A stretch of 64,000 nt of DNA from Pseudomonadota bacterium (GTDB taxonomy: Bacteria; Myxococcota; JACRCW01; JAFGSX01). Below are positions 48,404 to 63,510 of this stretch, in pieces (position 1 is the stretch's first letter; every line of letters starts with the position of its first letter). The notes beneath the pieces are model-generated. The model did not search any database. It was not told the origin of the DNA and saw only the letters and a list, made by a program, of their open reading frames with translations. Location of the stretch: positions 192,001 through 256,000 of the forward strand of contig JBDRCO010000068.1 of the NCBI GenBank assembly GCA_043821645.1. Reading direction: 5' to 3'. Position numbers and translations under genes: made by a program.

Positions 48404-50104
48404 CTAGCTTCCACAGTATCCGTTGACGAAAGCCTTGTACTGCTGCGGCGCACCGGGCTTGAGCTTGAGCACCGCACTCAGCTCCTTGCAGGCGTCGTCC
48501 TTGCGTCCCAGACTGTAGTAGACCATGCCCAGCTTCTGGTGCACGTCGGGATCCCTGGGAGCCAGCTCCAGCGCCTTGAGATAGTGCTTGAGCGCCGTTT
48601 CGTGATCCCCGGCCCCGGAGCGCGCCGCGCCCTTGTCCATCAGCGACTTGAGCCTCGCCCGGTCTGCCACGTCGAGGCCACCGCCGGGCTCGACGGGATC
48701 TGTACCGGACTCTCCGGGATCTTTCACGGCATGCCCGGTGTCCGGATCGGGATCCGGGTCCGGCTCGGGGTCCTTGATCGCAAGCTGCACGCTCGCGTCT
48801 GGCACGACCTGGGCAGCCGTCGCCGCGTCGACCTTGGCAGCTGCCATGCTGGCGGCATCCGCGGTCCCGGCCACGGCCACAACGCCGGCGTCCGCCCCCT
48901 GGGGCGCATCGACCCCGTTGCCACGCAGTGCCAGGAACGCGCCGACGGCGATGATCGCGACGCCCACCGCAGCACCACCGATGGCGAAGAGCCGGCCGCG
49001 TCCGGCGCCGGCAGGTGCGTCGCTGCCCAGGGAATCGGCCCGACCGGCCACTGGTCCGGTGGTCCGCGGCGCCAGTTCGGCTCCCGCCTCGGTGGCCGCC
49101 GTGGCCGCGATCGGTGGCGCGGTGCGCACGGGGGCGCCATCCGCGCGCGCTGCGATGGGCGCCAGGGCCTCGGACAGCTCGAGCACGGTCTGGAAGCGCT
49201 CCTCGCGCTTCTTGACCATGCAACGCAAGATGATCGCCTCGAGCTCAGCGGAGATGTTGCGATCGGGATAGGCCTGTCGCGGCGGTACCGGTTTCTCGAC
49301 GATGTGCTTGGTCACGATGCCGATGGCGTTGTCCGCCTGGAACGGAAGCTGTGCTGTCACCAGCTGGTACATCATGACGCCCAGGGCGTAGATGTCGGTT
49401 CGCGGGTCCAGCTCCTCGCCCCGCGCCTGCTCGGGGGCCATGTACTCGGGGGTACCACACACCATGCCGGCAGCGGTGAGCGCGCGCGTCTCCTTGGCGC
49501 CGCCGCCGTCCTGGATCTTGGCAATGCCAAAGTCGAGCACCTTGACGAAGTCGCGCTGACCTCGCCTGTCCTCGACCATGATGTTCTCGGGTTTGAGGTC
49601 GCGATGGATCACGCCCTGGGCGTGAGCATCGGCCAGCGCCGAGCACACCTGCATCAGCACGTGCGCGATGCGGGACTCGGCGATGGGATCGTCCTGCTGC
49701 AGCATCGTGAACAGGTCGCGGCCACCCAGGAACTCCATGGCCATGAACAGGGTTCCGTCCTCGTCCTGGCCAAAGTCGATGATGCTGATGCTGTTGGGGT
49801 GGTTGAGCCGGCTGGCCGCTCGCGCCTCGCGGTGGAAGCGGTGCACCAGGGTCTCGTCGTTGGTGTAGTGCGGGTGCAGCACCTTGAGCACGACCGGCTT
49901 GTCGAGGGAGAGCTGCACGGCCTTGTAGACCTTGCCCATGCCGCCAACGCCCAGCAGCTTCTCGATGCGGAAATTGCGCGCGAAGATCCGCCCCAGCAAC
50001 GGGTCCGCGTCGCTGGCCTTGGTCTTGGGGATCAGACCACCGCAGAAGGTGCAGAACTTGGCGCCCTCGGCGACGTCGTTGTGGCAGGAGGGGCAGGTCG
50101 GCAT
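48404..50104 (-). CDS. Membrane Ser/Thr protein kinase with N-terminal zinc ribbon and C-terminal TPR
   Basis: GVGGMGKVY, VLK, HRDLKPEN, DFG, GTPEYMAPE; CPSC/CTFC; TM; DP-repeat linker; TPR. Confidence 0.95.
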   Translation of the reverse strand: MPTCPSCHNDVAEGAKFCTFCGGLIPKTKASDADPLLGRIFARNFRIEKLLGVGGMGKVYKAVQLSLDKPVVLKVLHPHYTNDETLVHRFHREARAASRLNHPNSISIIDFGQDEDGTLFMAMEFLGGRDLFTMLQQDDPIAESRIAHVLMQVCSALADAHAQGVIHRDLKPENIMVEDRRGQRDFVKVLDFGIAKIQDGGGAKETRALTAAGMVCGTPEYMAPEQARGEELDPRTDIYALGVMMYQLVTAQLPFQADNAIGIVTKHIVEKPVPPRQAYPDRNISAELEAIILRCMVKKREERFQTVLELSEALAPIAARADGAPVRTAPPIAATAATEAGAELAPRTTGPVAGRADSLGSDAPAGAGRGRLFAIGGAAVGVAIIAVGAFLALRGNGVDAPQGADAGVVAVAGTADAASMAAAKVDAATAAQVVPDASVQLAIKDPEPDPDPDPDTGHAVKDPGESGTDPVEPGGGLDVADRARLKSLMDKGAARSGAGDHETALKHYLKALELAPRDPDVHQKLGMVYYSLGRKDDACKELSAVLKLKPGAPQQYKAFVNGYCGS

Positions 50105-50262
50105 ACAGAATCCTCCGCGAGCCGTATGTTAGCGGGACCTTGGGACGACGCAAGGTGCTTTCTCCACCGATTGTGCAAGTGGATGCGTGCTGCCCCATCG
50201 AATCGGCCGTCTCGACACCAAACGAGCACGCGATTAGGATGCCAGGTATGCCGGGAGGTGCC

Positions 50263-50571
50263 GTGCACGACGACGATTTTCCAGAGTTGCGCGAGCTGCA
50301 GGCCATGCAGAAAAAGCGCCACCGCCAGGTCATCGCCGGGCTGCTGGCAGGCGGAGTGGCCTCCATGGCTGGCGGTCTGGCCATCTTCGGACTGGCCGGA
50401 GGTGAGAACCCCGCGCTCGGGGGTGGCGCGGTGGGCATCGTGCTCATCGGCGTAGGTGCGATCATGATCGGGCGAGCACTGGTCAGCGCGTTCACGGACA
50501 TCGACACCAGGGTCCGGGACGACCTGATCGCCCCGATCCTGCCCGACGACGGCGACGACGAAGCATCATGA
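50263..50571 (+). CDS. Small 2-TM membrane protein
   Basis: GGAGG then GTG at 50263; two Gly-rich hydrophobic helices; ATGA overlap with the kinase gene. Confidence 0.7.
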   Translation: MHDDDFPELRELQAMQKKRHRQVIAGLLAGGVASMAGGLAIFGLAGGENPALGGGAVGIVLIGVGAIMIGRALVSAFTDIDTRVRDDLIAPILPDDGDDEAS

Positions 50572-52547
50572 GTGGCGAGACCCTGCCGGTCGGCACCCGT
50601 CTAGGGAAGTACCTGTTGCAGCGCCTGCTCGGCAAGGGCGCGATGGGGGCCGTCTACCTCGCCGTTGACGAGCTGCTGGATCGACAGGTGGCGGTCAAGA
50701 CCATCACCCCGACCTTCGCCGGGGACGCGCAGTTCAGGGCCCGGTTCCTGCGCGAGGCGAGGACGCTGGCCAAGCTCAATCACCCCAATGTGGTGCAGAT
50801 CTACGACGTCCACGACGTCGGGGAGGCCTCCCGGGACGACCTGCCGTTCCTGGTGACCGAGTTTGTCGATGGCAAGGACCTGTACACCATCGTCCGCGAC
50901 GAGAAGCACTTGCCCTGGGGTCGCGCCTGTCTGCTGCTGAGACAGATCGCCCTCGGGCTCTCCGCGGCCGCGGATCGGGACATCGTGCATCGCGACGTCA
51001 AGCCCGGCAACATCCTGGTGTCGATGGGGGACGTGGTCAAGGTCACCGACTTCGGTCTGGCCAAGCCGCTGGTCGGCGACCAGAGCCTGACCCAGGCCGA
51101 GGTGGTCATGGGAACGCCGGACTACATGGCTCCGGAGCAAGCCATGGGGCGGGCCATCGACTGGCGAGCAGATCAGTACGCCCTGGCCTGCACCATGTTT
51201 CAGATGCTCTGCGGGCGGACGCCTTTTGGCGACGGCGCCCCTGCCGAGATCTGTGCGCGCCAGGTGTATGACAGCTGGCCCGACGTCACGGCCCAGGTCG
51301 TCGACGTGCCACCCCGCCTGGTCGAGATCCTGGGCCGCATGGCGCAGAAGGACCCGGCAAGGCGCTTCGGGAGCTACCTTGAACTCCTGGATGCCATCGA
51401 CGACGTCCTGGATCCAGGGCGCGTGCGCGACCGCGAGCGGGCCTTCGTCGTCGTGACCAGTGGCGGCCAGACCGGGTTGCGTGTGCGCGTCGCGGATCGG
51501 CCCCTCATCGTCGGGCGCCTCCCCGAGTGCGATCTGGCCCTCGAGGATGCCCGGGCCAGCCGCAAGCACGCGGCCTTCCAGTATGGCAGCGAGGGCCTCG
51601 AGGTCCGCGACCTGGGGAGCCGCAACGGCCTGCTCGTCAACGACAGGCCAACGCGCTGGTCCTCCCTGGTCGACGGGGATCGCGTGAAGCTAGGGGATAC
51701 CAGCCTGTGCATCAGCATCGAACGTGTGGCACCGGATCCCGCGCTCGCACTGGCCGCCAAGGCCTCGGCTTTCGATGGCGTCGATGTCACCGCCGAGCGC
51801 CCCATGCCGGACGCCTTCACCGTACCTGCGCCAGAACCCTCGGCGTCGGTGTGGAAGGATGCCCATGAGAACAAAGGCCCGAGTGCCCTGACCCGTGTGG
51901 TGTCGCGCTCCGCGGCGCAGCGCATGACCGACGCATCCCACCTGAGCCGCCCCGGCGTGCTGCGCTGCCGGCGGGTGGACGTCGTGGTGGTGCGCTTCAA
52001 CCTGACCGGAGTGGTACGGCTGGCGGACGCGCTGGATCCGGACCAGCTCTCGAACCAGCTCAACGCCGCGCACGAGGTCATCGTGGATCAGGTGTTCCAG
52101 CACCAGGGCAGCCTCGACACCCTGACCGGTGACACCGTCCTGGCCGTGTTCGGCGCACCCGCCGAGGTGGCCGAGGCCGAGGCCAAGGCCGCCGCCGCCG
52201 CCTATCGCGGGACCCAGGCCGTGGTCGAGCTGCAGCGCGCTCACGAACCCACACAGCGCCTGGGCGTGCGCGCTGGGGTCGGCGCAGGGCCCGTGGTCGC
52301 CGGCCAGTTCGGGACCCACGACCGCAAGGACTACGGTGTCATTGGCCAGGCTGCCGAGATCGCTCGCGTGCTCGGCGCCATGGCGCCCGCGGACGGTGTG
52401 CTGCTGCAAGATGAAGTGGCACGGCGCCTGGGCGCCGGCTTTGACCTGCAGCCCCGGCCGGAGCAGACTCTCAAGCTGCACGGCCACGAGTATGCGGTGT
52501 TCGTGCTCACGGGGCTGCGATCAGCAACAGGAGAATGGCTGCGATGA
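50568..52547 (+). CDS. Ser/Thr kinase, FHA domain and degenerate class III nucleotide cyclase fusion
   Basis: GKGAMGAVY, HRDVKPGN, DFG, APE; FHA GR..SRKHA..GSRNG; cyclase-like GDTVLAVFG, GPVVAGQFG..RKDYGVIG. Confidence 0.9.
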   Translation: MSGETLPVGTRLGKYLLQRLLGKGAMGAVYLAVDELLDRQVAVKTITPTFAGDAQFRARFLREARTLAKLNHPNVVQIYDVHDVGEASRDDLPFLVTEFVDGKDLYTIVRDEKHLPWGRACLLLRQIALGLSAAADRDIVHRDVKPGNILVSMGDVVKVTDFGLAKPLVGDQSLTQAEVVMGTPDYMAPEQAMGRAIDWRADQYALACTMFQMLCGRTPFGDGAPAEICARQVYDSWPDVTAQVVDVPPRLVEILGRMAQKDPARRFGSYLELLDAIDDVLDPGRVRDRERAFVVVTSGGQTGLRVRVADRPLIVGRLPECDLALEDARASRKHAAFQYGSEGLEVRDLGSRNGLLVNDRPTRWSSLVDGDRVKLGDTSLCISIERVAPDPALALAAKASAFDGVDVTAERPMPDAFTVPAPEPSASVWKDAHENKGPSALTRVVSRSAAQRMTDASHLSRPGVLRCRRVDVVVVRFNLTGVVRLADALDPDQLSNQLNAAHEVIVDQVFQHQGSLDTLTGDTVLAVFGAPAEVAEAEAKAAAAAYRGTQAVVELQRAHEPTQRLGVRAGVGAGPVVAGQFGTHDRKDYGVIGQAAEIARVLGAMAPADGVLLQDEVARRLGAGFDLQPRPEQTLKLHGHEYAVFVLTGLRSATGEWLR

Positions 52548-54181: not shown

Positions 54182-55225
54182 TCACGGGAGCGGCGCGTCG
54201 AAAACGCAGCTGGCGGCGTCCCCCTGGGTCGGGTGCTGGTCGTCGGAGTCATCATAGTACGTCGTGGCAAGCTCGCAGGCCCAGCACTGGGTGGCGAAGA
54301 TCTCCGTCGACACCAGGTCGCCACCGCGGATGGTGGCATCGGCACGCCCGGCGCCGCAGGACTGCCACTGGGCGCAGATGCTGAGCTGCTCCAGGCTCGA
54401 GAAGATGAAGCCCGCCACGAAGTCCGCGTTGACCACGAAGCACATCTCCCCCGAACCATCGGCCTTGCCGTCGTAGCTGTAGTCGGCAGAGCTCGGCAGC
54501 AGGGTGCCCTCTTCGTGGACCTCGCGCACCTGCACCTCCAGGTGCACGTCACCACCAACCTGGACGTAGTCGATGGTGAGCCGGCCCTGGTCATCCACCT
54601 TGCCCATGCCCGCGCCCCGCACCGCATTGAGGTCGAGGGTCAGGCTGCCGCTGCCCGTGCGGGCACCTCCCTGGGGCTCCGAGGGTGTGTAGGATCCGTA
54701 CAGGACGCGCACCAGCCCCGAGTCGTCGACCTCGGTGTCGCAGGTGATGTCGTCGGCAAGTTCCTTGTCGAAGGCGCCGCGCATGGCGTGCAGGCAGTAG
54801 CTGAACTGATCCGAGTCGGCGGACAGCACACGGTGTATCTCGAAGCGCAGGGAGATGTTGTCGCGCAGCACGTGCACCGGTCCCCACACGCGCAGGTTGG
54901 CCGCGCGCCGCGTGGGCGCATAGCCGTGCGCGATGTTGTCGACGAGATCGAGCACCGCGAACGTGCCGGTGTTGATGGCCGTGGACACCGAGCCCGCCAG
55001 GCAGCGCAGGTTGTCGTCGGTGCACGCGCCAAGCCCCTGGGTCTGGCTGCCGGCCCGGTCCTGGCCGTAGTTGGCGCCTGGCGCCTTGAGCGCCAGGGTG
55101 GCCTTGTCCGGCAGTGCGGACAAAAAGATCAGGTCCTCGTTGGACAGGTTGCCGCAGGCCGTCAGCCCGGCCACGCCCAGGCAGGCGACGAGGAGACTGA
55201 GGAGCCTGGTGGCGCGCGTGTTCAT
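54182..55225 (-). CDS. Lipoprotein of unknown function (last gene of the ECF-caspase locus)
   Basis: GLTAC lipobox followed by GNLSNEDLIFLSALP; Cys pairs; beta-rich C-terminal half. Confidence 0.85.
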   Translation of the reverse strand: MNTRATRLLSLLVACLGVAGLTACGNLSNEDLIFLSALPDKATLALKAPGANYGQDRAGSQTQGLGACTDDNLRCLAGSVSTAINTGTFAVLDLVDNIAHGYAPTRRAANLRVWGPVHVLRDNISLRFEIHRVLSADSDQFSYCLHAMRGAFDKELADDITCDTEVDDSGLVRVLYGSYTPSEPQGGARTGSGSLTLDLNAVRGAGMGKVDDQGRLTIDYVQVGGDVHLEVQVREVHEEGTLLPSSADYSYDGKADGSGEMCFVVNADFVAGFIFSSLEQLSICAQWQSCGAGRADATIRGGDLVSTEIFATQCWACELATTYYDDSDDQHPTQGDAASCVFDAPLP

Positions 55226-55236
55226 CTCATCAATCC

Positions 55237-55264
55237 TGACACCGTGTGCGCTCGATCACCGAAA
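55237..55264 (-). promoter_or_regulatory. Candidate ECF promoter, copy 2 (lipoprotein gene)
   Basis: TTTCGG-TGATCGAGCGCACA-CGGTGTCA then 11 nt to ATG; same boxes and spacing as 58302-58329. Confidence 0.75.
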
Positions 55265-55281
55265 CGATTTGTTCCCTCGCC

Positions 55282-56910
55282 TCAAAAATCCACCCAGGCG
55301 CTGGCCAGCCCCTCGACGTAGCCGAAGCTGCGGTTCTGGTCCACCGTGTACAGCAGGTAGTGCGCGCGCAGCATGGCCTCGACGTGGAACCAGTCCCAGG
55401 GCGACCAGCCGACCAGCCCGACCAGGCCCGGGCTCATGGTCAGATAAAACTGGTTGTCGAGGGGCCCCCCGGCCTCGAAGGACCGCAGCATGAACAGCGT
55501 GGCCAGCCGGCCGCCTCCCGCCAGGTTCACCGGACCGAGGGCGTGCTCGTACAGGATCGAAGTCCCCAGCTGCACCTGGCTGTAGCGGATGGGGTACTCG
55601 AGGGTGCCCAGGGCACCTCCCGCGTCCAGGCGCAGGGTATCCTCGCGGGTGCCGAAGCCCAGATCGGCGGACAGCAGCAGGTGCCGCCGCAGCAGGTTGT
55701 GCAGCCGTGCCTCGAGGCTGACGAAACCGATGGGCGGGAACAGGTCAGCAGACATCGAGGCCGGTGAATCGAAGACCGCCTGGGCTCCAGCGCCCAGGGA
55801 GAGCGACAGCGTGATGGTACCATGCTGCAGTTCTTCCTCGAGCACCGGCGTGCCCTTCGCGTAGTCGTCCTCGAAACGCACGCGCTCCATGCCTGTCTCG
55901 TCGACAACCATGCTGCCGCGCGAGGCCACGCGCACCCGTTGCATGAGAAGGTGGTCGGGCAGGCGCTTCTTGATCACGTAGGCGCCACCCTTGACCGCCA
56001 GGCGCCGGGTCTCCCCCTTGACCTTGTCGATCTCGGCAACGATCAACTGGCGCTCCTCGTCGACGAGGTAGTACTGCCCGGCGAGGTCCTCGGGGAAGGT
56101 CAGCACCGCCCCTCCCTGGTCAAAGGAGGTGAGGATCACGTCTCCGGCCCCGCTCAGGTCGTAGTCGTAGGTCGGGTGCTGGGCCCCGGAACGGGTCGAG
56201 GCGGTGGCTGCCACGGTGCGGCTGTAGGCGTAGGCATAGGCCTCCCCCAGGGTCACCCGACCGTCGGAATTGGCGTCGGCGGCACCGCGCAGCCCGGTGG
56301 CCACGTAGTGGGTGAAGAAACTGCCCTGGATATCATCGGACTCCTGGCTGGCCTCGTCGGCAGAAGAGGAGGCGATGATGACCTGACCCCGGGCTGCCAG
56401 GCTGTGGTCCACGGCGATGACAAAGGGCGGCGCCAGCTGGCCTCCCTTCTCGCGGGTGATGGCACCGGCGCCGCAGGAATCGAGCAGGGCAATGCGCACC
56501 CGCGCCCGCGAAGCGTCGAGAAGTGACTTGAGCAGCTTCATGTCCAGCCGCGAGTCACCCATGCGCAGGATGCCGTCCTTGGCGTGGCCTGAGTAATAAA
56601 ACAGCACCAGCGCCTCGTCGCCGCGATGCTGGATGTGGCCCACCTTTGCCTCGAGCTCGCGCAGGGCGCGCAGCACGTCGGGGGCCGCCGGGTTCTCCAG
56701 GTGTGCAACATTGTGGGGCGAAAAGCCGCCGAGCGAGCTCAGCACCTCGGCCATGCGCTGGGCGTCACGGCCTGCATAGCGCAGGGTGGCCAGACCATCG
56801 CCGCCGAAGTTATTGCTGACCAGCAGCGCCAGGCGCTCGGTGACCGCCCGTGCCATCGACGAGGTCGCCAGCACCGTGGCCAGCACCGCGAGCGCGGCAA
56901 GGCGCTTCAT
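55282..56910 (-). CDS. Exported caspase-family (peptidase C14) protease with probable C-terminal outer-membrane beta-barrel
   Basis: Signal peptide; LRYAGRDA, FYYSGHA (His), LDSC (Cys), ASQES, SFFTH, QHP; alternating amphipathic strands ending AWVDF. Confidence 0.9.
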   Translation of the reverse strand: MKRLAALAVLATVLATSSMARAVTERLALLVSNNFGGDGLATLRYAGRDAQRMAEVLSSLGGFSPHNVAHLENPAAPDVLRALRELEAKVGHIQHRGDEALVLFYYSGHAKDGILRMGDSRLDMKLLKSLLDASRARVRIALLDSCGAGAITREKGGQLAPPFVIAVDHSLAARGQVIIASSSADEASQESDDIQGSFFTHYVATGLRGAADANSDGRVTLGEAYAYAYSRTVAATASTRSGAQHPTYDYDLSGAGDVILTSFDQGGAVLTFPEDLAGQYYLVDEERQLIVAEIDKVKGETRRLAVKGGAYVIKKRLPDHLLMQRVRVASRGSMVVDETGMERVRFEDDYAKGTPVLEEELQHGTITLSLSLGAGAQAVFDSPASMSADLFPPIGFVSLEARLHNLLRRHLLLSADLGFGTREDTLRLDAGGALGTLEYPIRYSQVQLGTSILYEHALGPVNLAGGGRLATLFMLRSFEAGGPLDNQFYLTMSPGLVGLVGWSPWDWFHVEAMLRAHYLLYTVDQNRSFGYVEGLASAWVDF

Positions 56911-57725
56911 GGCGCGACCTTGACGATGGAGATCGAGGTCTGGTGGACACCCGGGTCGTCGACGGGGAGGCGCTCGACCCGGCTCAGGTCCACGCCCTCT
57001 TGCACCAGCTTCAGGGCCGCGGACTGGGCGAGCTGATGCAGCATTTCCACGTCACCGTCGTCGGAGAACACCGCGAAGAAGCGCTCGGGTCCTACCGCGT
57101 CGTCGAGGATGACAGATCCCGGGAGCGGGCTCAGGGTCTCGACCCCCTTGGTTTGCTGGGTCAGGGCTTCGGCGTGGTAGACCGTGACCGCGCCACGACC
57201 ATCGACGCCCAGCAGCACCACGCTGCGCGCGCTCCGCGCGGGGCGCAGCAGGAACTGGATCTGCTGCCCGGCCTTGAGCTGCTCACCGTCATCACCGCGC
57301 CGGGCACCGGCGGGCTCGCGCACCAGGTAGCCGATTCCAGCCAGGTCGCTGCCCTTGCTGCGCAGGCCCGAGTCGTCGACGGGTGTGACCACCAGCAGCA
57401 CCACGGCTGCGGCCGCTGCCACCGCGACCGAACCCAGGGCCGGCCAGCGCCAGGCCCGCAGCTTCTCGACCCAGCTGCGGCGAGCTTGAGCGCGCCGCTC
57501 GAAATCCGCGGCAAAGCGTTCGAAGGGCATGACCGCGGAAAAAGCCGCGGCGTCGGAGCGGAGCCCGGCCACCAGCGATGCACAGTCCAGGCAGGTCTCC
57601 AGGTGCTGGTCGATGTCTCGCCGCTGTTCTGGCGTGCCCTCGCCCACCAGGTGCTGCTGCAGCCGGTGCGAGGTGACCCGCGAGCAGGTGGTGTGTGGCG
57701 TGAGATCGAGCAGCTTCGATGCCAT
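56907..57725 (-). CDS. Zinc-binding (ZAS/zf-HC2) transmembrane anti-sigma factor with DUF4384-like periplasmic domain
   Basis: HLETCLDC (HxxxCxxC); TM; LRSKG; LKAGQQIQF..VVLLGVDGRGAVTVY..GPERFFAVFS. Confidence 0.85.
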   Translation of the reverse strand: MASKLLDLTPHTTCSRVTSHRLQQHLVGEGTPEQRRDIDQHLETCLDCASLVAGLRSDAAAFSAVMPFERFAADFERRAQARRSWVEKLRAWRWPALGSVAVAAAAAVVLLVVTPVDDSGLRSKGSDLAGIGYLVREPAGARRGDDGEQLKAGQQIQFLLRPARSARSVVLLGVDGRGAVTVYHAEALTQQTKGVETLSPLPGSVILDDAVGPERFFAVFSDDGDVEMLHQLAQSAALKLVQEGVDLSRVERLPVDDPGVHQTSISIVKVAP

Positions 57726-57735
57726 GATGCGTCGC

Positions 57736-58290
57736 CTAGATCGGCGCCTCCTTGAGTTCGACCCAGGGCATGATCTTCTCGAGTTCGCGCCGCGCCGTGC
57801 GCAGGAAGCCGCGCAAGCGCTTGCGCACCGTGGGCACGCTCAGCCCCACGGCCTGGGCTATCTCCTCCTGGGTCATCTCGTCGACGAAGTAGTACACCGC
57901 CAGTTCCTGCACCTGGCGATCGCAGCGCGCCAGCAGGGCTCGCAGCAGGTCCAGGCGCTCGATCTGGCTGTGCTCGTCATCCCGGGTCTGCTCGGCAACC
58001 TTGCCCAGCTGCAACAGGTCGGTCTTCCAGCGTGCCTTGCGTGCGCGCAGGATGTTGAGGCAGTGGTTGGTGGCGATGCGCGTGATCCAGGTCAGGCGGC
58101 TGGCCTGGCCGCGGAAGCCTTCGAGATTGCCCAGCACCTTGATGAAAACGTCCTGCATGGCGTCCCGCGCTTCCTCGTCGTCTCGCAGCAGGTAGCGGCA
58201 GCGGCTGTAAACGCGCGTGGCGTACAGCTCGTACAGCTCCCGGAGCACTTCGCGGTCGGTCGCCACCTTGGTGAGCCTCTCGACCGCCAT
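57736..58290 (-). CDS. ECF RNA polymerase sigma factor
   Basis: Region 2 EARDAMQDVFIKV and TWITRIATNHCLNILR; region 4 MTQEEIAQAVGLSVPTVRKRL. Confidence 0.95.
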   Translation of the reverse strand: MAVERLTKVATDREVLRELYELYATRVYSRCRYLLRDDEEARDAMQDVFIKVLGNLEGFRGQASRLTWITRIATNHCLNILRARKARWKTDLLQLGKVAEQTRDDEHSQIERLDLLRALLARCDRQVQELAVYYFVDEMTQEEIAQAVGLSVPTVRKRLRGFLRTARRELEKIMPWVELKEAPI

Positions 58291-58301
58291 CCTGTTCCTC
58301 T

Positions 58302-58329
58302 TGACACCGAGGCCAGGCTGCGGCCGAAA
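58302..58329 (-). promoter_or_regulatory. Candidate ECF promoter, copy 1 (autoregulatory, sigma gene)
   Basis: TTTCGG-CCGCAGCCTGGCCT-CGGTGTCA then 11 nt to ATG 58290. Confidence 0.75.
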
Positions 58330-58497: not shown

Positions 58498-58525
58498 TTG
58501 ACAAGCCATCGTGCCGCTTCATGAT
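58498..58525 (+). promoter_or_regulatory. Possible sigma70-type promoter for the 58579 gene
   Basis: TTGACA-N16-CATGAT preceded by an AT-rich tract. Confidence 0.45.
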
Positions 58526-58578: not shown

Positions 58579-59358
58579 ATGGCACACCGGCACGCGTTTA
58601 CCGGGCTCCTGGCCCTTTCGTTGCTCGCCGCCGCAGGCTGCGGCCCCAGCGAGGAAGTTCGCACACCCCTCGATGCAGATCCGGCCGCCGAGGTCGCCAT
58701 CACCAACTTCACCATCTACGACGGGGTGATGGGCAGCAAGGAAGTCATGGTCTACATCAAGGTGGATCGCGAGATCTCGCGGGTCGAGTTGCTGTGCGAT
58801 GACGCCACCGAGCCTGCGGCCTCGGCCGAGGGTCGGGTCACCTCACTGATGTGGGACAGCACGCGCTGCGCCGAGGGTGTTGTGAACCTGGTGGCGCGGG
58901 TGGTGGACGAGGACGATCACACCTACGACAGCCCGGCCATGTCCCTGGTGGTGGTCAATCGAGGCCGGGTGGTCTCCCTCACCGAGGGCAACCTGGGCAC
59001 GATCCGCATCCCGACCACCTACGACGGCACCCAGGAAGTCGACGTCAAGCACCACTGGAACAACCCGGCCGGGCAGACCCGGGTGGTGGCCATCGCGACC
59101 TGGAACCTGACGGCCAGTGATCCTGTGTGGATGATCGAGGGATCGGTGGGCTGCGGCGTGTGTCCGCACAGCGGCAGCTTGTGGGGCCAGCCCGAGGAGA
59201 CCGACGCCAGCCCCTTCATCATCGACATGCGCGCCAGCGACATCAATCAGACCTGGCTCGACACCACCCAGGCCTTCTTCCACCTGAGGCCGCTGGATGC
59301 CCAGAATCACCTGGGTGAGAATCTGCCCTACACGATGGCCGTGTACCTGTTCGAGTGA
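58579..59358 (+). CDS. Hypothetical lipoprotein (Ig-like N-terminal half)
   Basis: GGAGG RBS; AAGC lipobox; WDST..EG...LVARVVD Ig-like motif; GCGVCPHSG. Confidence 0.8.
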   Translation: MAHRHAFTGLLALSLLAAAGCGPSEEVRTPLDADPAAEVAITNFTIYDGVMGSKEVMVYIKVDREISRVELLCDDATEPAASAEGRVTSLMWDSTRCAEGVVNLVARVVDEDDHTYDSPAMSLVVVNRGRVVSLTEGNLGTIRIPTTYDGTQEVDVKHHWNNPAGQTRVVAIATWNLTASDPVWMIEGSVGCGVCPHSGSLWGQPEETDASPFIIDMRASDINQTWLDTTQAFFHLRPLDAQNHLGENLPYTMAVYLFE

Positions 59359-59457: not shown

Positions 59458-60000
59458 TCAGTCGGTGAACAGAGCCTGCTCGAAGCTGGCGTAGCTGCGC
59501 GCGTCGAACAGCACGAACACGATCTTGCGCAGGTGCACCGGCTCGGCCTCGAGAAAGGCGCGGACCTGGGCCGCGGCGATATGTGCGGCGCGCTCGAGCG
59601 GGAAGCCATAGGCCCCGGTGCCGATCGAGGGGAGCGCGATGGAGGTGCAACCCGCGTCCTCCGCGAGCTGCAGCGAGGTCCGATAGGCGCCAGCAAGCAG
59701 CAGATCGTCGCTGGCCTCATCACCGCTCCAGATCGGTCCCACGGCGTGAATCACGTGCTGCACGCCATTCTGCTCGAGGTCGTATGCGGCAGTGATCACC
59801 GCAGCGCCGGTGGCGCAGCCACCCAACTTGCGGCACTCCTTGAGCAGCCGTGGCCCCGCCGCCCTGTGCACGGCTCCATCGACCCCGCCTCCACCGCGCA
59901 GCTGCGCATTGGCCGCGGTGACCAGGGCTTCCACACTCTGCTCGGTGATATCCCCTTGCTCGATGATCACGCGCCCCGACCCCAGATCCCGCTCCAGCAT
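59458..60000 (-). CDS. Macrodomain protein (YmdB-like O-acetyl-ADP-ribose deacetylase)
   Basis: GDIT, TAAN, GGGGVDGAVH, VIHAVGP, SIGTGAYGF. Confidence 0.92.
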   Translation of the reverse strand: MLERDLGSGRVIIEQGDITEQSVEALVTAANAQLRGGGGVDGAVHRAAGPRLLKECRKLGGCATGAAVITAAYDLEQNGVQHVIHAVGPIWSGDEASDDLLLAGAYRTSLQLAEDAGCTSIALPSIGTGAYGFPLERAAHIAAAQVRAFLEAEPVHLRKIVFVLFDARSYASFEQALFTD

Positions 60001-60260
60001 CGCCCAGCCTTTCACTGTTTCGCCTGTTGCCCGTGCCCTCCCCGGCCCGGTTGACAGGTGCGTCGCATGCGCCATACAGATGTCTCTTCAATCTGGACCA
60101 GGCCGGCAGGCAATGCAAGCCGGCCCGGGCGCGGGGCCAGGCAGGGGGCACGAAGCCTGCTGTGGCGCACGGACACGCGGCGCGGCAGGACCAGCCAGCA
60201 GCCGCGGCGAAAACAAGTGGGGTCCCGGTCCGGCCCCACGCGCAGCACAAGGAGTCGGGC

Positions 60261-61127
60261 ATGGCCAGGGTCGTCAAGTGCGGGTTGATCCAGTGTGGGC
60301 TCGCCAAGAGCGAGGGCAGTGTCGATGAGATCAAGGAGGCGATGGTGCTCAAACACCTGCCCCTGATCGAGGATGCGGGTAAGAAGGGCGTGCAGATCCT
60401 CTGTCTGCAGGAGATCTTCAACACCCCGTACTTCTGCCCGGCGCAGACCCCGGACTGGTATGCCAGCGCCGAGACCATCCCCGGTCCCACCGTCGAACGC
60501 ATGCAGGCCCTGGCCAAGAAGCACCAGATGGTGATCGTGGTCCCCATCTACGAGAAGGTCATGGCCGGCGTCTTTTACAACTCGGCCGCGGTCATCGACG
60601 CTGATGGCAGCTACCTGGGCAAGTACCGCAAGCACCACATCCCACAGACCGCGGGCTTCTGGGAGAAGTACTACTTCAAGCCCGGCAATGGCGGCTGGCC
60701 CGTGTTCAAGACGCGCTACGCCGACGTCGGCGTGTACATCTGCTACGACCGGCACTTTCCCGAGGGTGCACGCCTGCTCGGCCTGCACGGCGCCGAGATC
60801 GTGTTCAACCCTTCGGCCACGGTGGCCGGCCTGTCGCAATACCTGTGGAAGCTGGAGCAGCCCGCACACGCCGTGGCCAATGGCTACTACATGGGTTGCA
60901 TCAACCGCGTGGGCACCGAGGCGCCGTGGAACATCGGTCGCTTCTACGGCACCAGCTACTTCGTCAACCCGCGAGGACAGATCCTGGCCGAGGCCAGCGA
61001 GGACAAGGACGAACTTGTGGTGGCCGAGCTTGACCTCGACCTCATCGACGAGGTGCGCAACACCTGGCAGTTCTTCCGCGACCGTCGGCCCGAGGCCTAC
61101 GAGGAGTTGGTGCAGCAGCTGCCCTGA
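60261..61127 (+). CDS. Nitrilase-family beta-ureidopropionase (beta-alanine synthase)
   Basis: LQEIF, YRKHHIP, ICYDRHFPEG (E-K-C triad), FFRDRRP; near dihydropyrimidinase. Confidence 0.92.
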   Translation: MARVVKCGLIQCGLAKSEGSVDEIKEAMVLKHLPLIEDAGKKGVQILCLQEIFNTPYFCPAQTPDWYASAETIPGPTVERMQALAKKHQMVIVVPIYEKVMAGVFYNSAAVIDADGSYLGKYRKHHIPQTAGFWEKYYFKPGNGGWPVFKTRYADVGVYICYDRHFPEGARLLGLHGAEIVFNPSATVAGLSQYLWKLEQPAHAVANGYYMGCINRVGTEAPWNIGRFYGTSYFVNPRGQILAEASEDKDELVVAELDLDLIDEVRNTWQFFRDRRPEAYEELVQQLP

Positions 61128-61162
61128 GCAGCGGCCCGAGCACGTATCGAGCGGAGGTATCC

Positions 61163-62026
61163 ATGACACGACACAACCGGGTCGGGTGGCTGCTGCTGGG
61201 CATGGCGCTGTGGCCCGTGGGCTGCGAGTGCGGTGAGGCTCCACCACCCGGGGGCGGGCCCGACGCTGGCTCCTTCGATGTGCGGCCGACCATCGTCTAT
61301 GCCGACATCGAGGGCGCGCAGCAGCTGGTGGTGGTCGGTGACACGCTGGCCGCCGGTGGTGGCGTGCCCATCGCTGCCAACTTCGTGTCCCTGGTCCTGC
61401 ACAACGACGACACGGCGTTTCCGGACTTCGCCGGTCAGGACCTCGAGACCCTGCGCCCGGGCAGCGACCGCTTCAACCTGGCGGTGGATGGGGCTCGGGT
61501 CCAGGGCTTGCTCGAGGTGCAGGCGCCCAACGTGCCTGAAAACGCCACCGCCGTGGTCCTGGCGACAGGTCTCGAGGACTTTCTGGACCAGGCCGGGAGC
61601 AGCGCCGAGGAGGGAGCCGCCGAGGCCGCGATCTTTGGTGCCCTCCTCGACGATGTGGTGGGCAGCCTGCGCAATCTGTCGCGCTTTCCGGTGCTGCCCC
61701 GGGTCTACCTGTTGACCATCCCTGACGCCAGCGACGGCGCCGGCGACCTTGGCGAGCTGTACGGCCTCGGCACCTGGGCCGATGCCCGGTCCGTGCTCAC
61801 CGCCTACAACGCGGAGATCGTCGAGGTGGCCTCGCGCCAGAGCGCGGTGGTGGTGGACGTCCGCAGCCACTTTTTGGGCCATGGCGCACATTTTGACGAC
61901 ACCGCCAACCCCAACCACGACGCGAGCGACGCCACGGCCTGGCTGCAGCTCGACCTCCGGCGGCCCAATCGCCGGGGCCACAGCGAGCTCAGGCGCCTGG
62001 TCCTGGACAAGGTGCTGGGCCACTGA
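61163..62026 (+). CDS. SGNH/GDSL-fold lipoprotein with substituted catalytic residues
   Basis: PVGC lipobox; VVGDTL, NLAVDGA, GLED, DLRRPNRRGH blocks. Confidence 0.75.
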   Translation: MTRHNRVGWLLLGMALWPVGCECGEAPPPGGGPDAGSFDVRPTIVYADIEGAQQLVVVGDTLAAGGGVPIAANFVSLVLHNDDTAFPDFAGQDLETLRPGSDRFNLAVDGARVQGLLEVQAPNVPENATAVVLATGLEDFLDQAGSSAEEGAAEAAIFGALLDDVVGSLRNLSRFPVLPRVYLLTIPDASDGAGDLGELYGLGTWADARSVLTAYNAEIVEVASRQSAVVVDVRSHFLGHGAHFDDTANPNHDASDATAWLQLDLRRPNRRGHSELRRLVLDKVLGH

Positions 62027-62118
62027 GCGACGAGAGCGCCGGGGAGTGACCTCCATGCCCCGGCCGCTCCGAGACCACCAGGGCGGGTCGACCGCTCCCC
62101 AGAAAGCGAGGACAGACC

Positions 62119-63510
62119 ATGGGACTCCTGATCAAGAACGGCACGCTGGTCACCGCCATCGACGAGTTCAAGGCCGATGTGTACTGCGACGGGGGCACCA
62201 TCGCCGCCATCGGGGCCGATCTGAGCGCTGCCAAGAAGACCGGTGACGAGGTGGTGGACGCCGCGGGCCTGTACGTGCTGCCCGGCGGCATCGATCCGCA
62301 CACCCACTTCGAGCTCCCCTTCATGGGCACGGTGAGCGCCGACGACTTCGAGAGCGGCACCGCCGCGGCCCTGGCTGGCGGCACCACCTGCGTCATCGAC
62401 TTCGCCATCCCGGCCAAGGGCGGCACCCTGCGCGAGGCCCTCGACCAGTGGAAGGAGAAGGCCAAGAAGTCCGTCGCGGACTACGCCTTTCACATGGCCC
62501 TGACCGATCCCAGCGATGTCGTGATGAAGGAGATCCCGGAGCTGGTGCGGGAGCACGGTGTGACCTCGTTCAAGGCCTTCATGGCCTACAAGGGCGCCAT
62601 CGGCGTCGACGACGAGGCCCTGATCCGTTTCATGCAGGCCGTGAACCGCGGCGGCGGTCTGCTGTGGCTGCACGCCGAGAATGGAGACGCCATCCTGGAG
62701 CGGCAGCAGCGCTTTCTAGCCGAGGGCAAGACAGGTCCCGAGTGGCACGAGCCCAGCCGACCGGCCATCCTCGAGGGCGAGGCCGTGCAGCGCGCACTGG
62801 CCCTGGCCGAGCTGTACGAGGTCCCCATAGGCTTCGTGCACATGAGCAGCCGGGACGCCTACCAGGCCTTCGCCGCGGCCCGGGTGCGGGGCCAGCTCGC
62901 CTATGCCGAGACCTGCCCGCAGTACCTGGTGCTCGACGACAGCGTCTACCGCAAACCCGATTTCGAGGCCGCGACCTACGTCATGAGTCCGCCCATTCGA
63001 CCGGCGGGTCACAGCGAGTGGCTGTGGAAGGGCCTGCAGAACGGACTGCTGCAGACTGTCGGCACAGACCACTGCCCGTTCAAGCTGGTCGGGCAAAAAG
63101 ACATGGGCAAGGGCGACTTCACCAAGATCCCCAACGGCGGCCCTGGCGTCGAGAACCGGCTGCAGATCCTGTGGCACTTCGGCGTGGGCGGTGGCTGGCT
63201 CACGCGCCAGCAGTTCGTGGCCGCGACCTCGACCAACGTGGCGAGGCTCTATGGCATGTACCCGCGCAAGGGCGCGCTGCGCGTCGGATCCGACGCGGAT
63301 CTGGTACTGTGGGACCCCGACGCCAGCCAGACTCTGTCCGCCAAGAGCCAGTTCTCGCGCTGTGACCGCGCCCTGTACGAGGGCTTCAAGGTGACGGGCG
63401 CTCCGGCGCAGGTGGTCGCAGCAGGCCAGGTGAAGTTCGACCGGGGCTCGCTCAAGGTCGAGAAGGGTGCCGGTCGCTTTGTGGCGCGCACCCCCTACTC
63501 CCGGATGTAG
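62119..63510 (+). CDS. hydA: Dihydropyrimidinase
   Basis: PGGIDPHTH, SFKAFMAYK, HAENG, TDHCPF, DFTKIPNG, GSDADLV. Confidence 0.95.
   Translation: MGLLIKNGTLVTAIDEFKADVYCDGGTIAAIGADLSAAKKTGDEVVDAAGLYVLPGGIDPHTHFELPFMGTVSADDFESGTAAALAGGTTCVIDFAIPAKGGTLREALDQWKEKAKKSVADYAFHMALTDPSDVVMKEIPELVREHGVTSFKAFMAYKGAIGVDDEALIRFMQAVNRGGGLLWLHAENGDAILERQQRFLAEGKTGPEWHEPSRPAILEGEAVQRALALAELYEVPIGFVHMSSRDAYQAFAAARVRGQLAYAETCPQYLVLDDSVYRKPDFEAATYVMSPPIRPAGHSEWLWKGLQNGLLQTVGTDHCPFKLVGQKDMGKGDFTKIPNGGPGVENRLQILWHFGVGGGWLTRQQFVAATSTNVARLYGMYPRKGALRVGSDADLVLWDPDASQTLSAKSQFSRCDRALYEGFKVTGAPAQVVAAGQVKFDRGSLKVEKGAGRFVARTPYSRM

Follow-up and report, generated by a model that had tools for sequence, protein, structure and literature searches.

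Introduction

What most bacterial caspase homologues cut, and why, is a long-standing question. The worked-out cases in the literature consulted are linked to clustered regularly interspaced short palindromic repeats (CRISPR) or to cyclic-oligonucleotide-based antiphage signalling (CBASS), and the role of the protease domain of DdvA is unsettled (statements about published work refer throughout to the parts of each source that were consulted). Four operons that join a sigma factor to a metacaspase have been listed for Myxococcus xanthus DK1622, around MXAN_4950, MXAN_6682, MXAN_7215 and MXAN_7455, and such operons also occur in other Deltaproteobacteria, with no mechanism given (Asplund-Samuelsson 2012, PMC3501461). 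Here, we analyse a 64,000-nucleotide stretch of a genome from the Myxococcota (assembly GCA_043821645.1, contig JBDRCO010000068.1, positions 192,001 to 256,000; hereafter the window), the minus strand of which carries a cassette of this kind: genes for a sigma factor of the extracytoplasmic function (ECF) type, an anti-sigma factor, a caspase-family protease and a lipoprotein, with one two-box motif before the first and the last of them. The motif, TTTC/G[TG]GTC in its family form, is very probably the promoter of the cassette's own sigma factor, which would transcribe the cassette and every copy of one lipoprotein family. With distinctly less assurance, we favour a switch that works by caspase-gated proteolysis, every step of which is put forward as a prediction; for the cognate promoter and the caspase-gated switch taken together, we estimate a probability of about 0.62.

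The cassette shares with the listed operons an ECF sigma factor, a hypothetical and often transmembrane (TM) protein, a metacaspase and often a lipoprotein; unlike the present analysis, the parts of that report consulted give no promoter, anti-sigma assignment, barrel, substrate or mechanism (PMC3501461). The DK1622 orthologue of the cassette anti-sigma factor, MXAN_4885, lies outside its four operon rows. The DdvS/DdvA system of M. xanthus also combines an ECF sigma factor with a zinc-binding, single-pass anti-sigma factor and a periplasmic caspase-fold protease, and has several cognate promoters within one locus (PMC11506125, PMC6061681). It differs in three respects. In DdvA, a TPR-CHAT protease is fused to the anti-sigma factor, whereas the window encodes a separate C14 enzyme on a predicted outer-membrane barrel; the DdvS promoter is GTAA-n16-CGT (PMC6061681) rather than TTTC/G[TG]GTC; and the output of DdvS is CBASS/CRISPR rather than a lipoprotein family. 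In the type III-E Craspase (Csx29/Csx30/RpoE), a caspase-like protease cuts a sigma-binding protein in its linker, as we propose here; Csx30 is the substrate, and one group of its C-terminal domains is DUF4384 (bioRxiv 2022.08.17.504292). Craspase, however, is RNA-triggered, CRISPR-linked (Cas7-11) and of the TPR-CHAT type, whereas the window cassette encodes an exported C14 enzyme with a barrel and a ZAS-type anti-sigma factor with a TM helix. No cas gene stands among the annotated genes, a genome-wide cas search not having been made. The Haliangium PCaspase cascade is likewise CRISPR-linked (bioRxiv 2023.06.23.546230), and 23 cyanobacterial orthocaspases carry a DUF4384 fusion (PMC8283722).

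Among the described ECF groups, ECF25 shares a single-pass anti-sigma factor at position +1 with a zinc motif and/or DUF4384, an occurrence that includes Deltaproteobacteria, and a −10 box with GTC, but its −35 box, reported for subgroups s1 and s2, is GGAAC rather than TTTC (Casas-Pastor 2021, PMC7826278). In the supplement text searched for that classification, caspase is mentioned for no ECF group, and none of 19 places with 'TTT' gives a TTTC/GTGTC promoter. The Arg/Lys-specific clan CD proteases MALT1 and metacaspases resemble the window enzyme in their caspase fold, His-Cys dyad, nearby acidic residues and β-domain after the protease; the window enzyme differs in being bacterial, exported and apparently barrel-anchored, with a predicted specificity. 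In the literature found, which may miss M. xanthus ECF work in subscription journals, nothing concerns a TTTC/G[TG]GTC promoter, basic-Gly cut sites or MXAN_4882-4887, and MXAN_488x has no entry in four Cappable-seq supplements of PMC8844925, among which a genome-wide start-site table could not be confirmed.

A repeated two-box motif and its family consensus

Exact copies of the pattern TTTCGG-N14-CGGTGTCA lie on the minus strand at 58329-58302 and 55264-55237, each of them ending 11 nt 5' of an ATG, at 58290 for the sigma gene and at 55225 for the lipoprotein gene. An earlier note on this DNA had reported this identity together with the equal distance to ATG and the unrelated spacer sequences, and all three are confirmed. 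Not one of 100 shuffled windows contained even a single match, and in the 7.07-Mb genome the window pair are the only exact N14 matches. With an N17 spacer, one further exact-box match was found (C86:+22702); it is not linked to any convincing gene.

Upstream sequences of 40 loci chosen by caspase similarity (L031-L070) yielded a T run followed by G[TG]GTC. The pattern TTT-N17..19-G[TG]GTC was fixed on these loci and then tested on a held-out set (L071-L110; 39 loci, chosen by lipoprotein similarity except for two taken from the source genome). It preceded 21 of 26 first or stand-alone lipoprotein genes and 6 of 11 first ECF sigma genes, compared with none of 20 sigma genes behind a lipoprotein gene. 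Tandem lipoprotein genes had it in 2 of 4 cases and those behind a caspase gene in 4 of 32; it preceded 2 of 30 anti-sigma genes, none of 30 caspase genes behind an anti-sigma gene and 1 of 4 other caspase frames. The reverse-complement control gave one match across the entire held-out set.

From 51 sites the consensus is TTTC-N17-G[TG]GTC, the core letters of which were chosen by the selection rule and hence are not themselves a result; the spacer is 17 in 43 sites and 18 in 8. The sites also carry GC three and two bases 5' of the −10 box (43 and 41 of 51), an A one base past the −10 hexamer (46/51) and, frequently, a second T tract in the spacer. The base following TTTC is G in just 6 of 51 sites. 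The 14 box bases shared by the two window copies are thus identical to each other, as first described, but GG is not part of the family consensus, and while the two-box architecture stands, the boxes themselves are corrected from TTTCGG and CGGTGTCA to TTTC and G[TG]GTC. It had been remarked that they depart from the common ECF consensus; the −35 box is unusual, but −10 boxes that end in GTC are frequent in ECFs (ECF02, ECF25). In these terms, the sigma-gene promoter has a putative −35 element TTTC within a T run (58326-58329) and a −10 element GTGTCA (58302-58307), with a position weight matrix (PWM) score of 18.9; the internal one, lying between caspase and lipoprotein genes, has TTTC at 55261-55264 and GTGTCA at 55237-55242, with a score of 11.0. 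The spacer is 18 in both. On the minus strand at 58359-58332, a sigma70-like TTGGCG-N16-TAATAT abuts the sigma-gene −35 box; it falls under the promoter-scan threshold, a similar pattern occurs in just 3 of 44 loci, and it is a weak lead.

The motif follows a position rule. With the sigma gene first, a site scoring at least 10 lies upstream in 21/21 loci when a longer region is searched. With the sigma gene behind a lipoprotein paralogue, the best score is at most 1.6 in 23/23 loci and the site precedes the paralogue instead. Lipoprotein genes behind the caspase gene have a site in none of 32 cases at a gap of at most 23 nt and in 11 of 14 at a gap of at least 29 nt. That the identity of the two window sites reflects chance, local duplication or a translation signal is very improbable: some shared bases, namely the GG after TTTC and the N11, do fall outside the family consensus, which counts in its favour, yet no shuffle reproduces the motif, the spacers are unrelated, the two-box spacing is fixed across many families, and the motif is strand-specific and absent where genes are translationally coupled. 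The held-out loci and the unlinked paralogues described below contradict this origin as well.

The same sites bear on the transcript ends. Close sigma orthologues start 6-20 nt past the −10 box, and an upstream TTG has no consistent counterpart among them; ATG 58290 is therefore the likely sigma start, as had been suggested. Near-leaderless transcripts had also been proposed. This may fit the internal lipoprotein sites only, where the distance from the −10 hexamer to the start codon is 7-20 nt in 10 of 11 (start codons were picked by signal-peptide length) and leaders could be very short or absent. For stand-alone lipoprotein genes, by contrast, it is mostly 40-62 nt. In three loci (L088, L094, L110) the promoter lies 225-242 nt 5' of the sigma gene with no lipoprotein gene between, perhaps a remnant after the first gene was lost or relocated.

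Covariation of the −35 box with the sigma factor

The sigma factor (184 aa, 57736-58290) matches TIGR02937 at 8e-24 as well as PF04542 and PF08281, and its identity is borne out by tree and alignment. In a tree of 65 sigma rows, none left out, the sigma factors of lipoprotein cassettes cluster together (44 rows, support 94/77; a core of 39 rows at 100/98). They are marked by the sigma4 recognition helix SxPTxRK[RK]L, which reads SVPTVRKRL in the window sigma factor. The motif stands before the first gene in 40 of the 44 loci of this clade, whereas none of 18 caspase cassettes whose helix differs has it there. A sister clade with the helix SVSGVRKRL (L056, L062, L064, L069) instead carries GTGAC-N17-G[TG]GTT, before the sigma gene in 4/4 and after the caspase gene in 3/4. 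The sigma4 helix and the −35 box change together, as a cognate promoter predicts. Both marks of an autoregulated ECF promoter, boxes at fixed spacing in orthologous loci and a box sequence that tracks the sigma4 helix, are found here, and the conservation anticipated for orthologous loci is borne out.

These data also bear on whether, instead of the adjacent ECF, a different sigma factor or a transcription factor that is conserved in Myxococcota might recognise the motif. The genome has many further ECF-like genes, and the motif tracks the lipoprotein family more faithfully than it tracks the sigma gene. Nevertheless, the −35 box varies with the adjacent sigma4 helix, and the motif always heads the unit that contains the cassette sigma gene, which together leave another reader improbable. 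In seven loci (L084, L085, L089, L091, L092, L093, L100), inspection by eye showed TAGTCT, TAGACT or TAGGCT 6-12 nt before the likely sigma start, between the first lipoprotein gene and the sigma gene; such boxes may be a housekeeping −10 element for basal, leaderless expression of the switch.

Extent of the predicted regulon

Unlinked lipoprotein paralogues offer a second test. Among 13 of them from six genomes, 11 are preceded by a site with a score of 13 or more; three of the 13 were already among the held-out loci. Among 400 random 230-nt genome segments, 0.75% reach a score of 10. The lipoprotein's role as an output of the sigma factor, proposed from two sites, is supported accordingly. 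In the source genome, one such paralogue (G000:C108:94642-95799, minus strand; L108, L188) is preceded by the near-consensus TTTTTC-N17-GGGTCC, with the −10 box at 95799 (minus strand); its PWM score of 21.0 is the joint top score at spacer 17, and it is a predicted third member of the regulon in this genome. The genome-wide scan for the exact pattern that the earlier note had recommended recovers both window sites but no others at N14, and it misses this paralogue. Allowing up to two mismatches, the exact pattern gives 24 hits, no more than at wrong spacers. The other top PWM hits (C46, C52, C33, C89, C134) are candidates only, several of them inside long open frames.

Several observations weigh against a cognate promoter of this scope. 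The two window copies share the less common spacer of 18 nt, and the one before the lipoprotein gene is weak. Four of the 44 sigma-clade members fail the strict pattern, and 23 of the 44 cassettes have no site at the sigma gene itself and would depend on read-through or another promoter. The two unlinked paralogues that lack a site are the two most divergent. The GTGAC motif was derived from the very four loci in which it was counted, and many sites scored for the position rule had also gone into the training of the PWM, so that those scores describe rather than test; the held-out loci and the unlinked paralogues are the only largely independent tests. At scores above 14, the PWM scan of the genome gives 53 and 51 hits at the right spacers and 31-53 at wrong ones, with no enrichment. 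Since the motif is this short and is not enriched genome-wide over wrong spacers, no larger regulon can be called. On balance, held-out loci, the match with the sigma helix and unlinked paralogues support a promoter cognate to the ECF sigma factor, and the motif most likely marks this sigma factor's regulon, namely the cassette and one lipoprotein family.

Anatomy of the cassette proteins

The cassette is conserved in Myxococcota, and its gene order (lipoprotein)-sigma-anti-sigma-caspase-lipoprotein recurs in many families. The anti-sigma factor (272 aa, 56907-57725; profile and homologues) is built of a zinc domain with HxxxCxxC, a single TM helix and a DUF4384-type domain in the periplasm. 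Its zf-HC2 match is weak in the window protein (E 0.00095; zinc motif HLETCLDC); among 63 homologues zf-HC2 is found in 26 and DUF4384 in 36, and some are without the cysteines. The N-terminus matches solved ZAS anti-sigma factors and, weakly (E 0.008), DdvA. HxxxCxxC, a single TM helix and the +1 position relative to the ECF gene place it with the ZAS-type membrane anti-sigma factors.

The caspase-family protein (542 aa, 55282-56910; PF00656 at 1e-14) is an exported protease whose gene is translationally coupled to the anti-sigma gene, its start overlapping the anti-sigma stop (ATGA). A signal peptide is followed by a C14 domain with H109 and C146, a small all-β domain and an eight-stranded barrel resembling OmpA and NspA. 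In the AlphaFold2 model (predicted local distance difference test, pLDDT, 91.4), the eight long C-terminal strands match OmpA and NspA by Foldseek; the top match overall is MALT1, and caspases were also matched; identities in the Foldseek rows are just 10-16%. By sequence, metacaspases come closest among solved proteins. With this fold and a dyad invariant in 65/65 homologues, the protein belongs to Peptidase C14. From established barrel topology, an even-stranded barrel would place the protease in the periplasm. The acidic residues D49, D144, E186 and E190 are also invariant. Such residues presumably form the S1 pocket, as in MALT1. In one locus (L093), the caspase gene is split into pieces by a ~2.4 kb interruption while the rest of the cassette is intact.

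The lipoprotein (347 aa, 54182-55225; lipobox Cys24; AlphaFold2 pLDDT 88.9) belongs to a family found mainly in Myxococcota. Of 401 phylum genomes, one of them unpublished, 250 contain a match, and so do 2091 cluster representatives. The proteins that resemble it come from Myxococcota, and those in the Atlas are hypothetical Myxococcota clusters only. No Pfam or NCBIfam family matched it, no Pfam family recurs among 80 members, and its fold has no Foldseek match at E ≤ 0.001; the best VIA Z (10.4, root-mean-square deviation 6.1), to unrelated outer-membrane barrels, was taken to reflect a generic curved sheet. In 32 of 46 loci the caspase gene has one lipoprotein copy coupled to it, and for this reason the lipoproteins may feed back on the protease.

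Basic-Gly sites and a proposed proteolytic switch

One dipeptide links the two coupled proteins. Just past the TM helix, the anti-sigma factor carries R122-S-K124-G125 (57351-57362), a predicted site-1 cleavage motif; R122 is present in 54/63 homologues, and K124 and G125, invariant in 63/63, account for two of the three invariant columns in the whole alignment. The caspase has K155-G156 in the loop after the catalytic Cys (56443-56448; invariant 65/65), a predicted autoprocessing site, and K352-G353 in the linker before the barrel (55852-55857; K 65/65, G 64/65), a predicted release site. Only two segments of the caspase model have pLDDT below 50; K155-G156 lies inside one and K352-G353 at the edge of the other. 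Metacaspases cut after Arg/Lys (PMC3501461). Given the invariant acids and the basic-Gly sites, we infer cleavage after Arg/Lys for this caspase too, and the simplest reading of the three motifs would make them substrates of one active site.

Paralogous cassettes point the same way. In 34 loci with both partners readable, drawn from 43 further caspase loci, the residues in the caspase loop and the anti-sigma linker are R/R in 24, K/K in 7, R/K in 2 and K/R in 1, and the lone K/R locus carries K-G at the aligned place. L169 resembles Arg-type enzymes, yet has Lys sites in both its caspase and its anti-sigma factor. Three other ECF/anti-sigma/caspase cassettes of the source genome are Arg-type, with A-R-G in the anti-sigma factor and Arg-Gly-type sites in the caspase; these (G000:C113:177590-180446, C38:3369-6466 and C66:27857-31095, all minus strand; L122-L124) have other sigma4 helices and C-terminal hydrophobic helices with no obvious barrel. 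L131, L132, L152, L158, L166 and L168 represent a further type of cassette, with a caspase that carries A-[TA]-C instead of D-x-C, a longer loop and K-[GSA] ~20 residues past the Cys.

These features suggest the following switch. The sigma factor would transcribe its own cassette, giving positive feedback, together with the lipoprotein copies, linked or unlinked. Anchored in the outer membrane through its eight-stranded barrel, the protease would have its catalytic domain in the periplasm. On an envelope signal, the caspase would cut itself after K155, for activation, and after K352, for release from the barrel; the latter cut would also account for an enzyme of the outer membrane being able to act next to the inner membrane. 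The freed caspase would then cut the anti-sigma factor after K124, which lies some ten residues outside the inner membrane, and an RseP-type intramembrane protease, by analogy with DdvA (PMC11506125), would complete cleavage and free the sigma factor. The presence of DUF4384 on orthocaspases and on Csx30 is counted in favour of this proteolysis model. A complex prediction of caspase residues 1-325 with the periplasmic part of the anti-sigma factor gave a median of 0.25, below the mark of 0.32.

Alternatively, the promoter may be the sigma factor's own while the caspase is no trigger but an output or a scaffold; another protease would make the first cut, and the basic-Gly motifs would be binding, tight-turn or inhibitory pseudo-substrate elements. 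A product- or substrate-like peptide held in the active site would likewise co-vary between K and R, and in DdvA the CHAT site is incomplete and its role unsettled (PMC11506125). The K/R counts lend this account some further room, and several points here weigh against the caspase as trigger: 3 of 34 cassettes mismatch (one, L152, a rule artefact by eye), 9 of the 43 further loci have no readable anti-sigma factor, and the reading rules were set after part of the sequences had been inspected. Kinship moreover inflates the counts, so that the match rests on few clades and about one independent swap. Against a passive caspase stand the invariance of the catalytic dyad, the translational coupling of the two genes and the recurrence of one dipeptide at three exposed linkers of two proteins, at barrel-release and site-1 positions. 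We consider a passive caspase unlikely, if a serious competitor, and prefer caspase-gated proteolysis.

Flanking genes

On the plus strand, a divergent lipoprotein-like gene with a bacterial Ig-like look (58579-59358; leads only) is preceded by TTGACA-N16-CATGAT at 58498-58525; it has no homologue in the 40 loci chosen by caspase similarity. The cassette flanks (48404-52547, 59458-63510) hold two Ser/Thr kinase-like open reading frames, one of which shows FHA- and cyclase-like segments by eye, as well as a Macro-domain gene (PF01661). Two further frames in the flanks we take to be nitrilase-like and dihydropyrimidinase-like.

Concluding remarks

What is new about the promoter is its consensus; its kind is ordinary, and so is ECF autoregulation through a repeated promoter. 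The cassette is a new form of protease-controlled ECF switch, of interest for its protease logic and its regulon. A wider proposal, to which we give even odds, is that such cassettes form phylum-wide trans-envelope switches, in which an outer-membrane Lys- or Arg-specific caspase would process and release itself and cut its cognate anti-sigma factor at a matching basic-Gly site, with several paralogous switches side by side in one cell, insulated by the P1 residue and by a sigma4/−35 code, and with a dedicated lipoprotein family under the control of the one described here. The TTTC and GTGAC clades provide a natural test of the sigma4 residues that set −35 specificity. The cassette yields exact and cheap predictions, comprising a reporter-ready promoter, three residues, a catalytic Cys and a defined output family, and M. 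xanthus DK1622, a genetically tractable strain, has an orthologue (MXAN_4885 region). If the wider proposal is true, there would be a bacterial caspase, outside CRISPR immunity, whose substrate, cut site, promoter and output are all defined.

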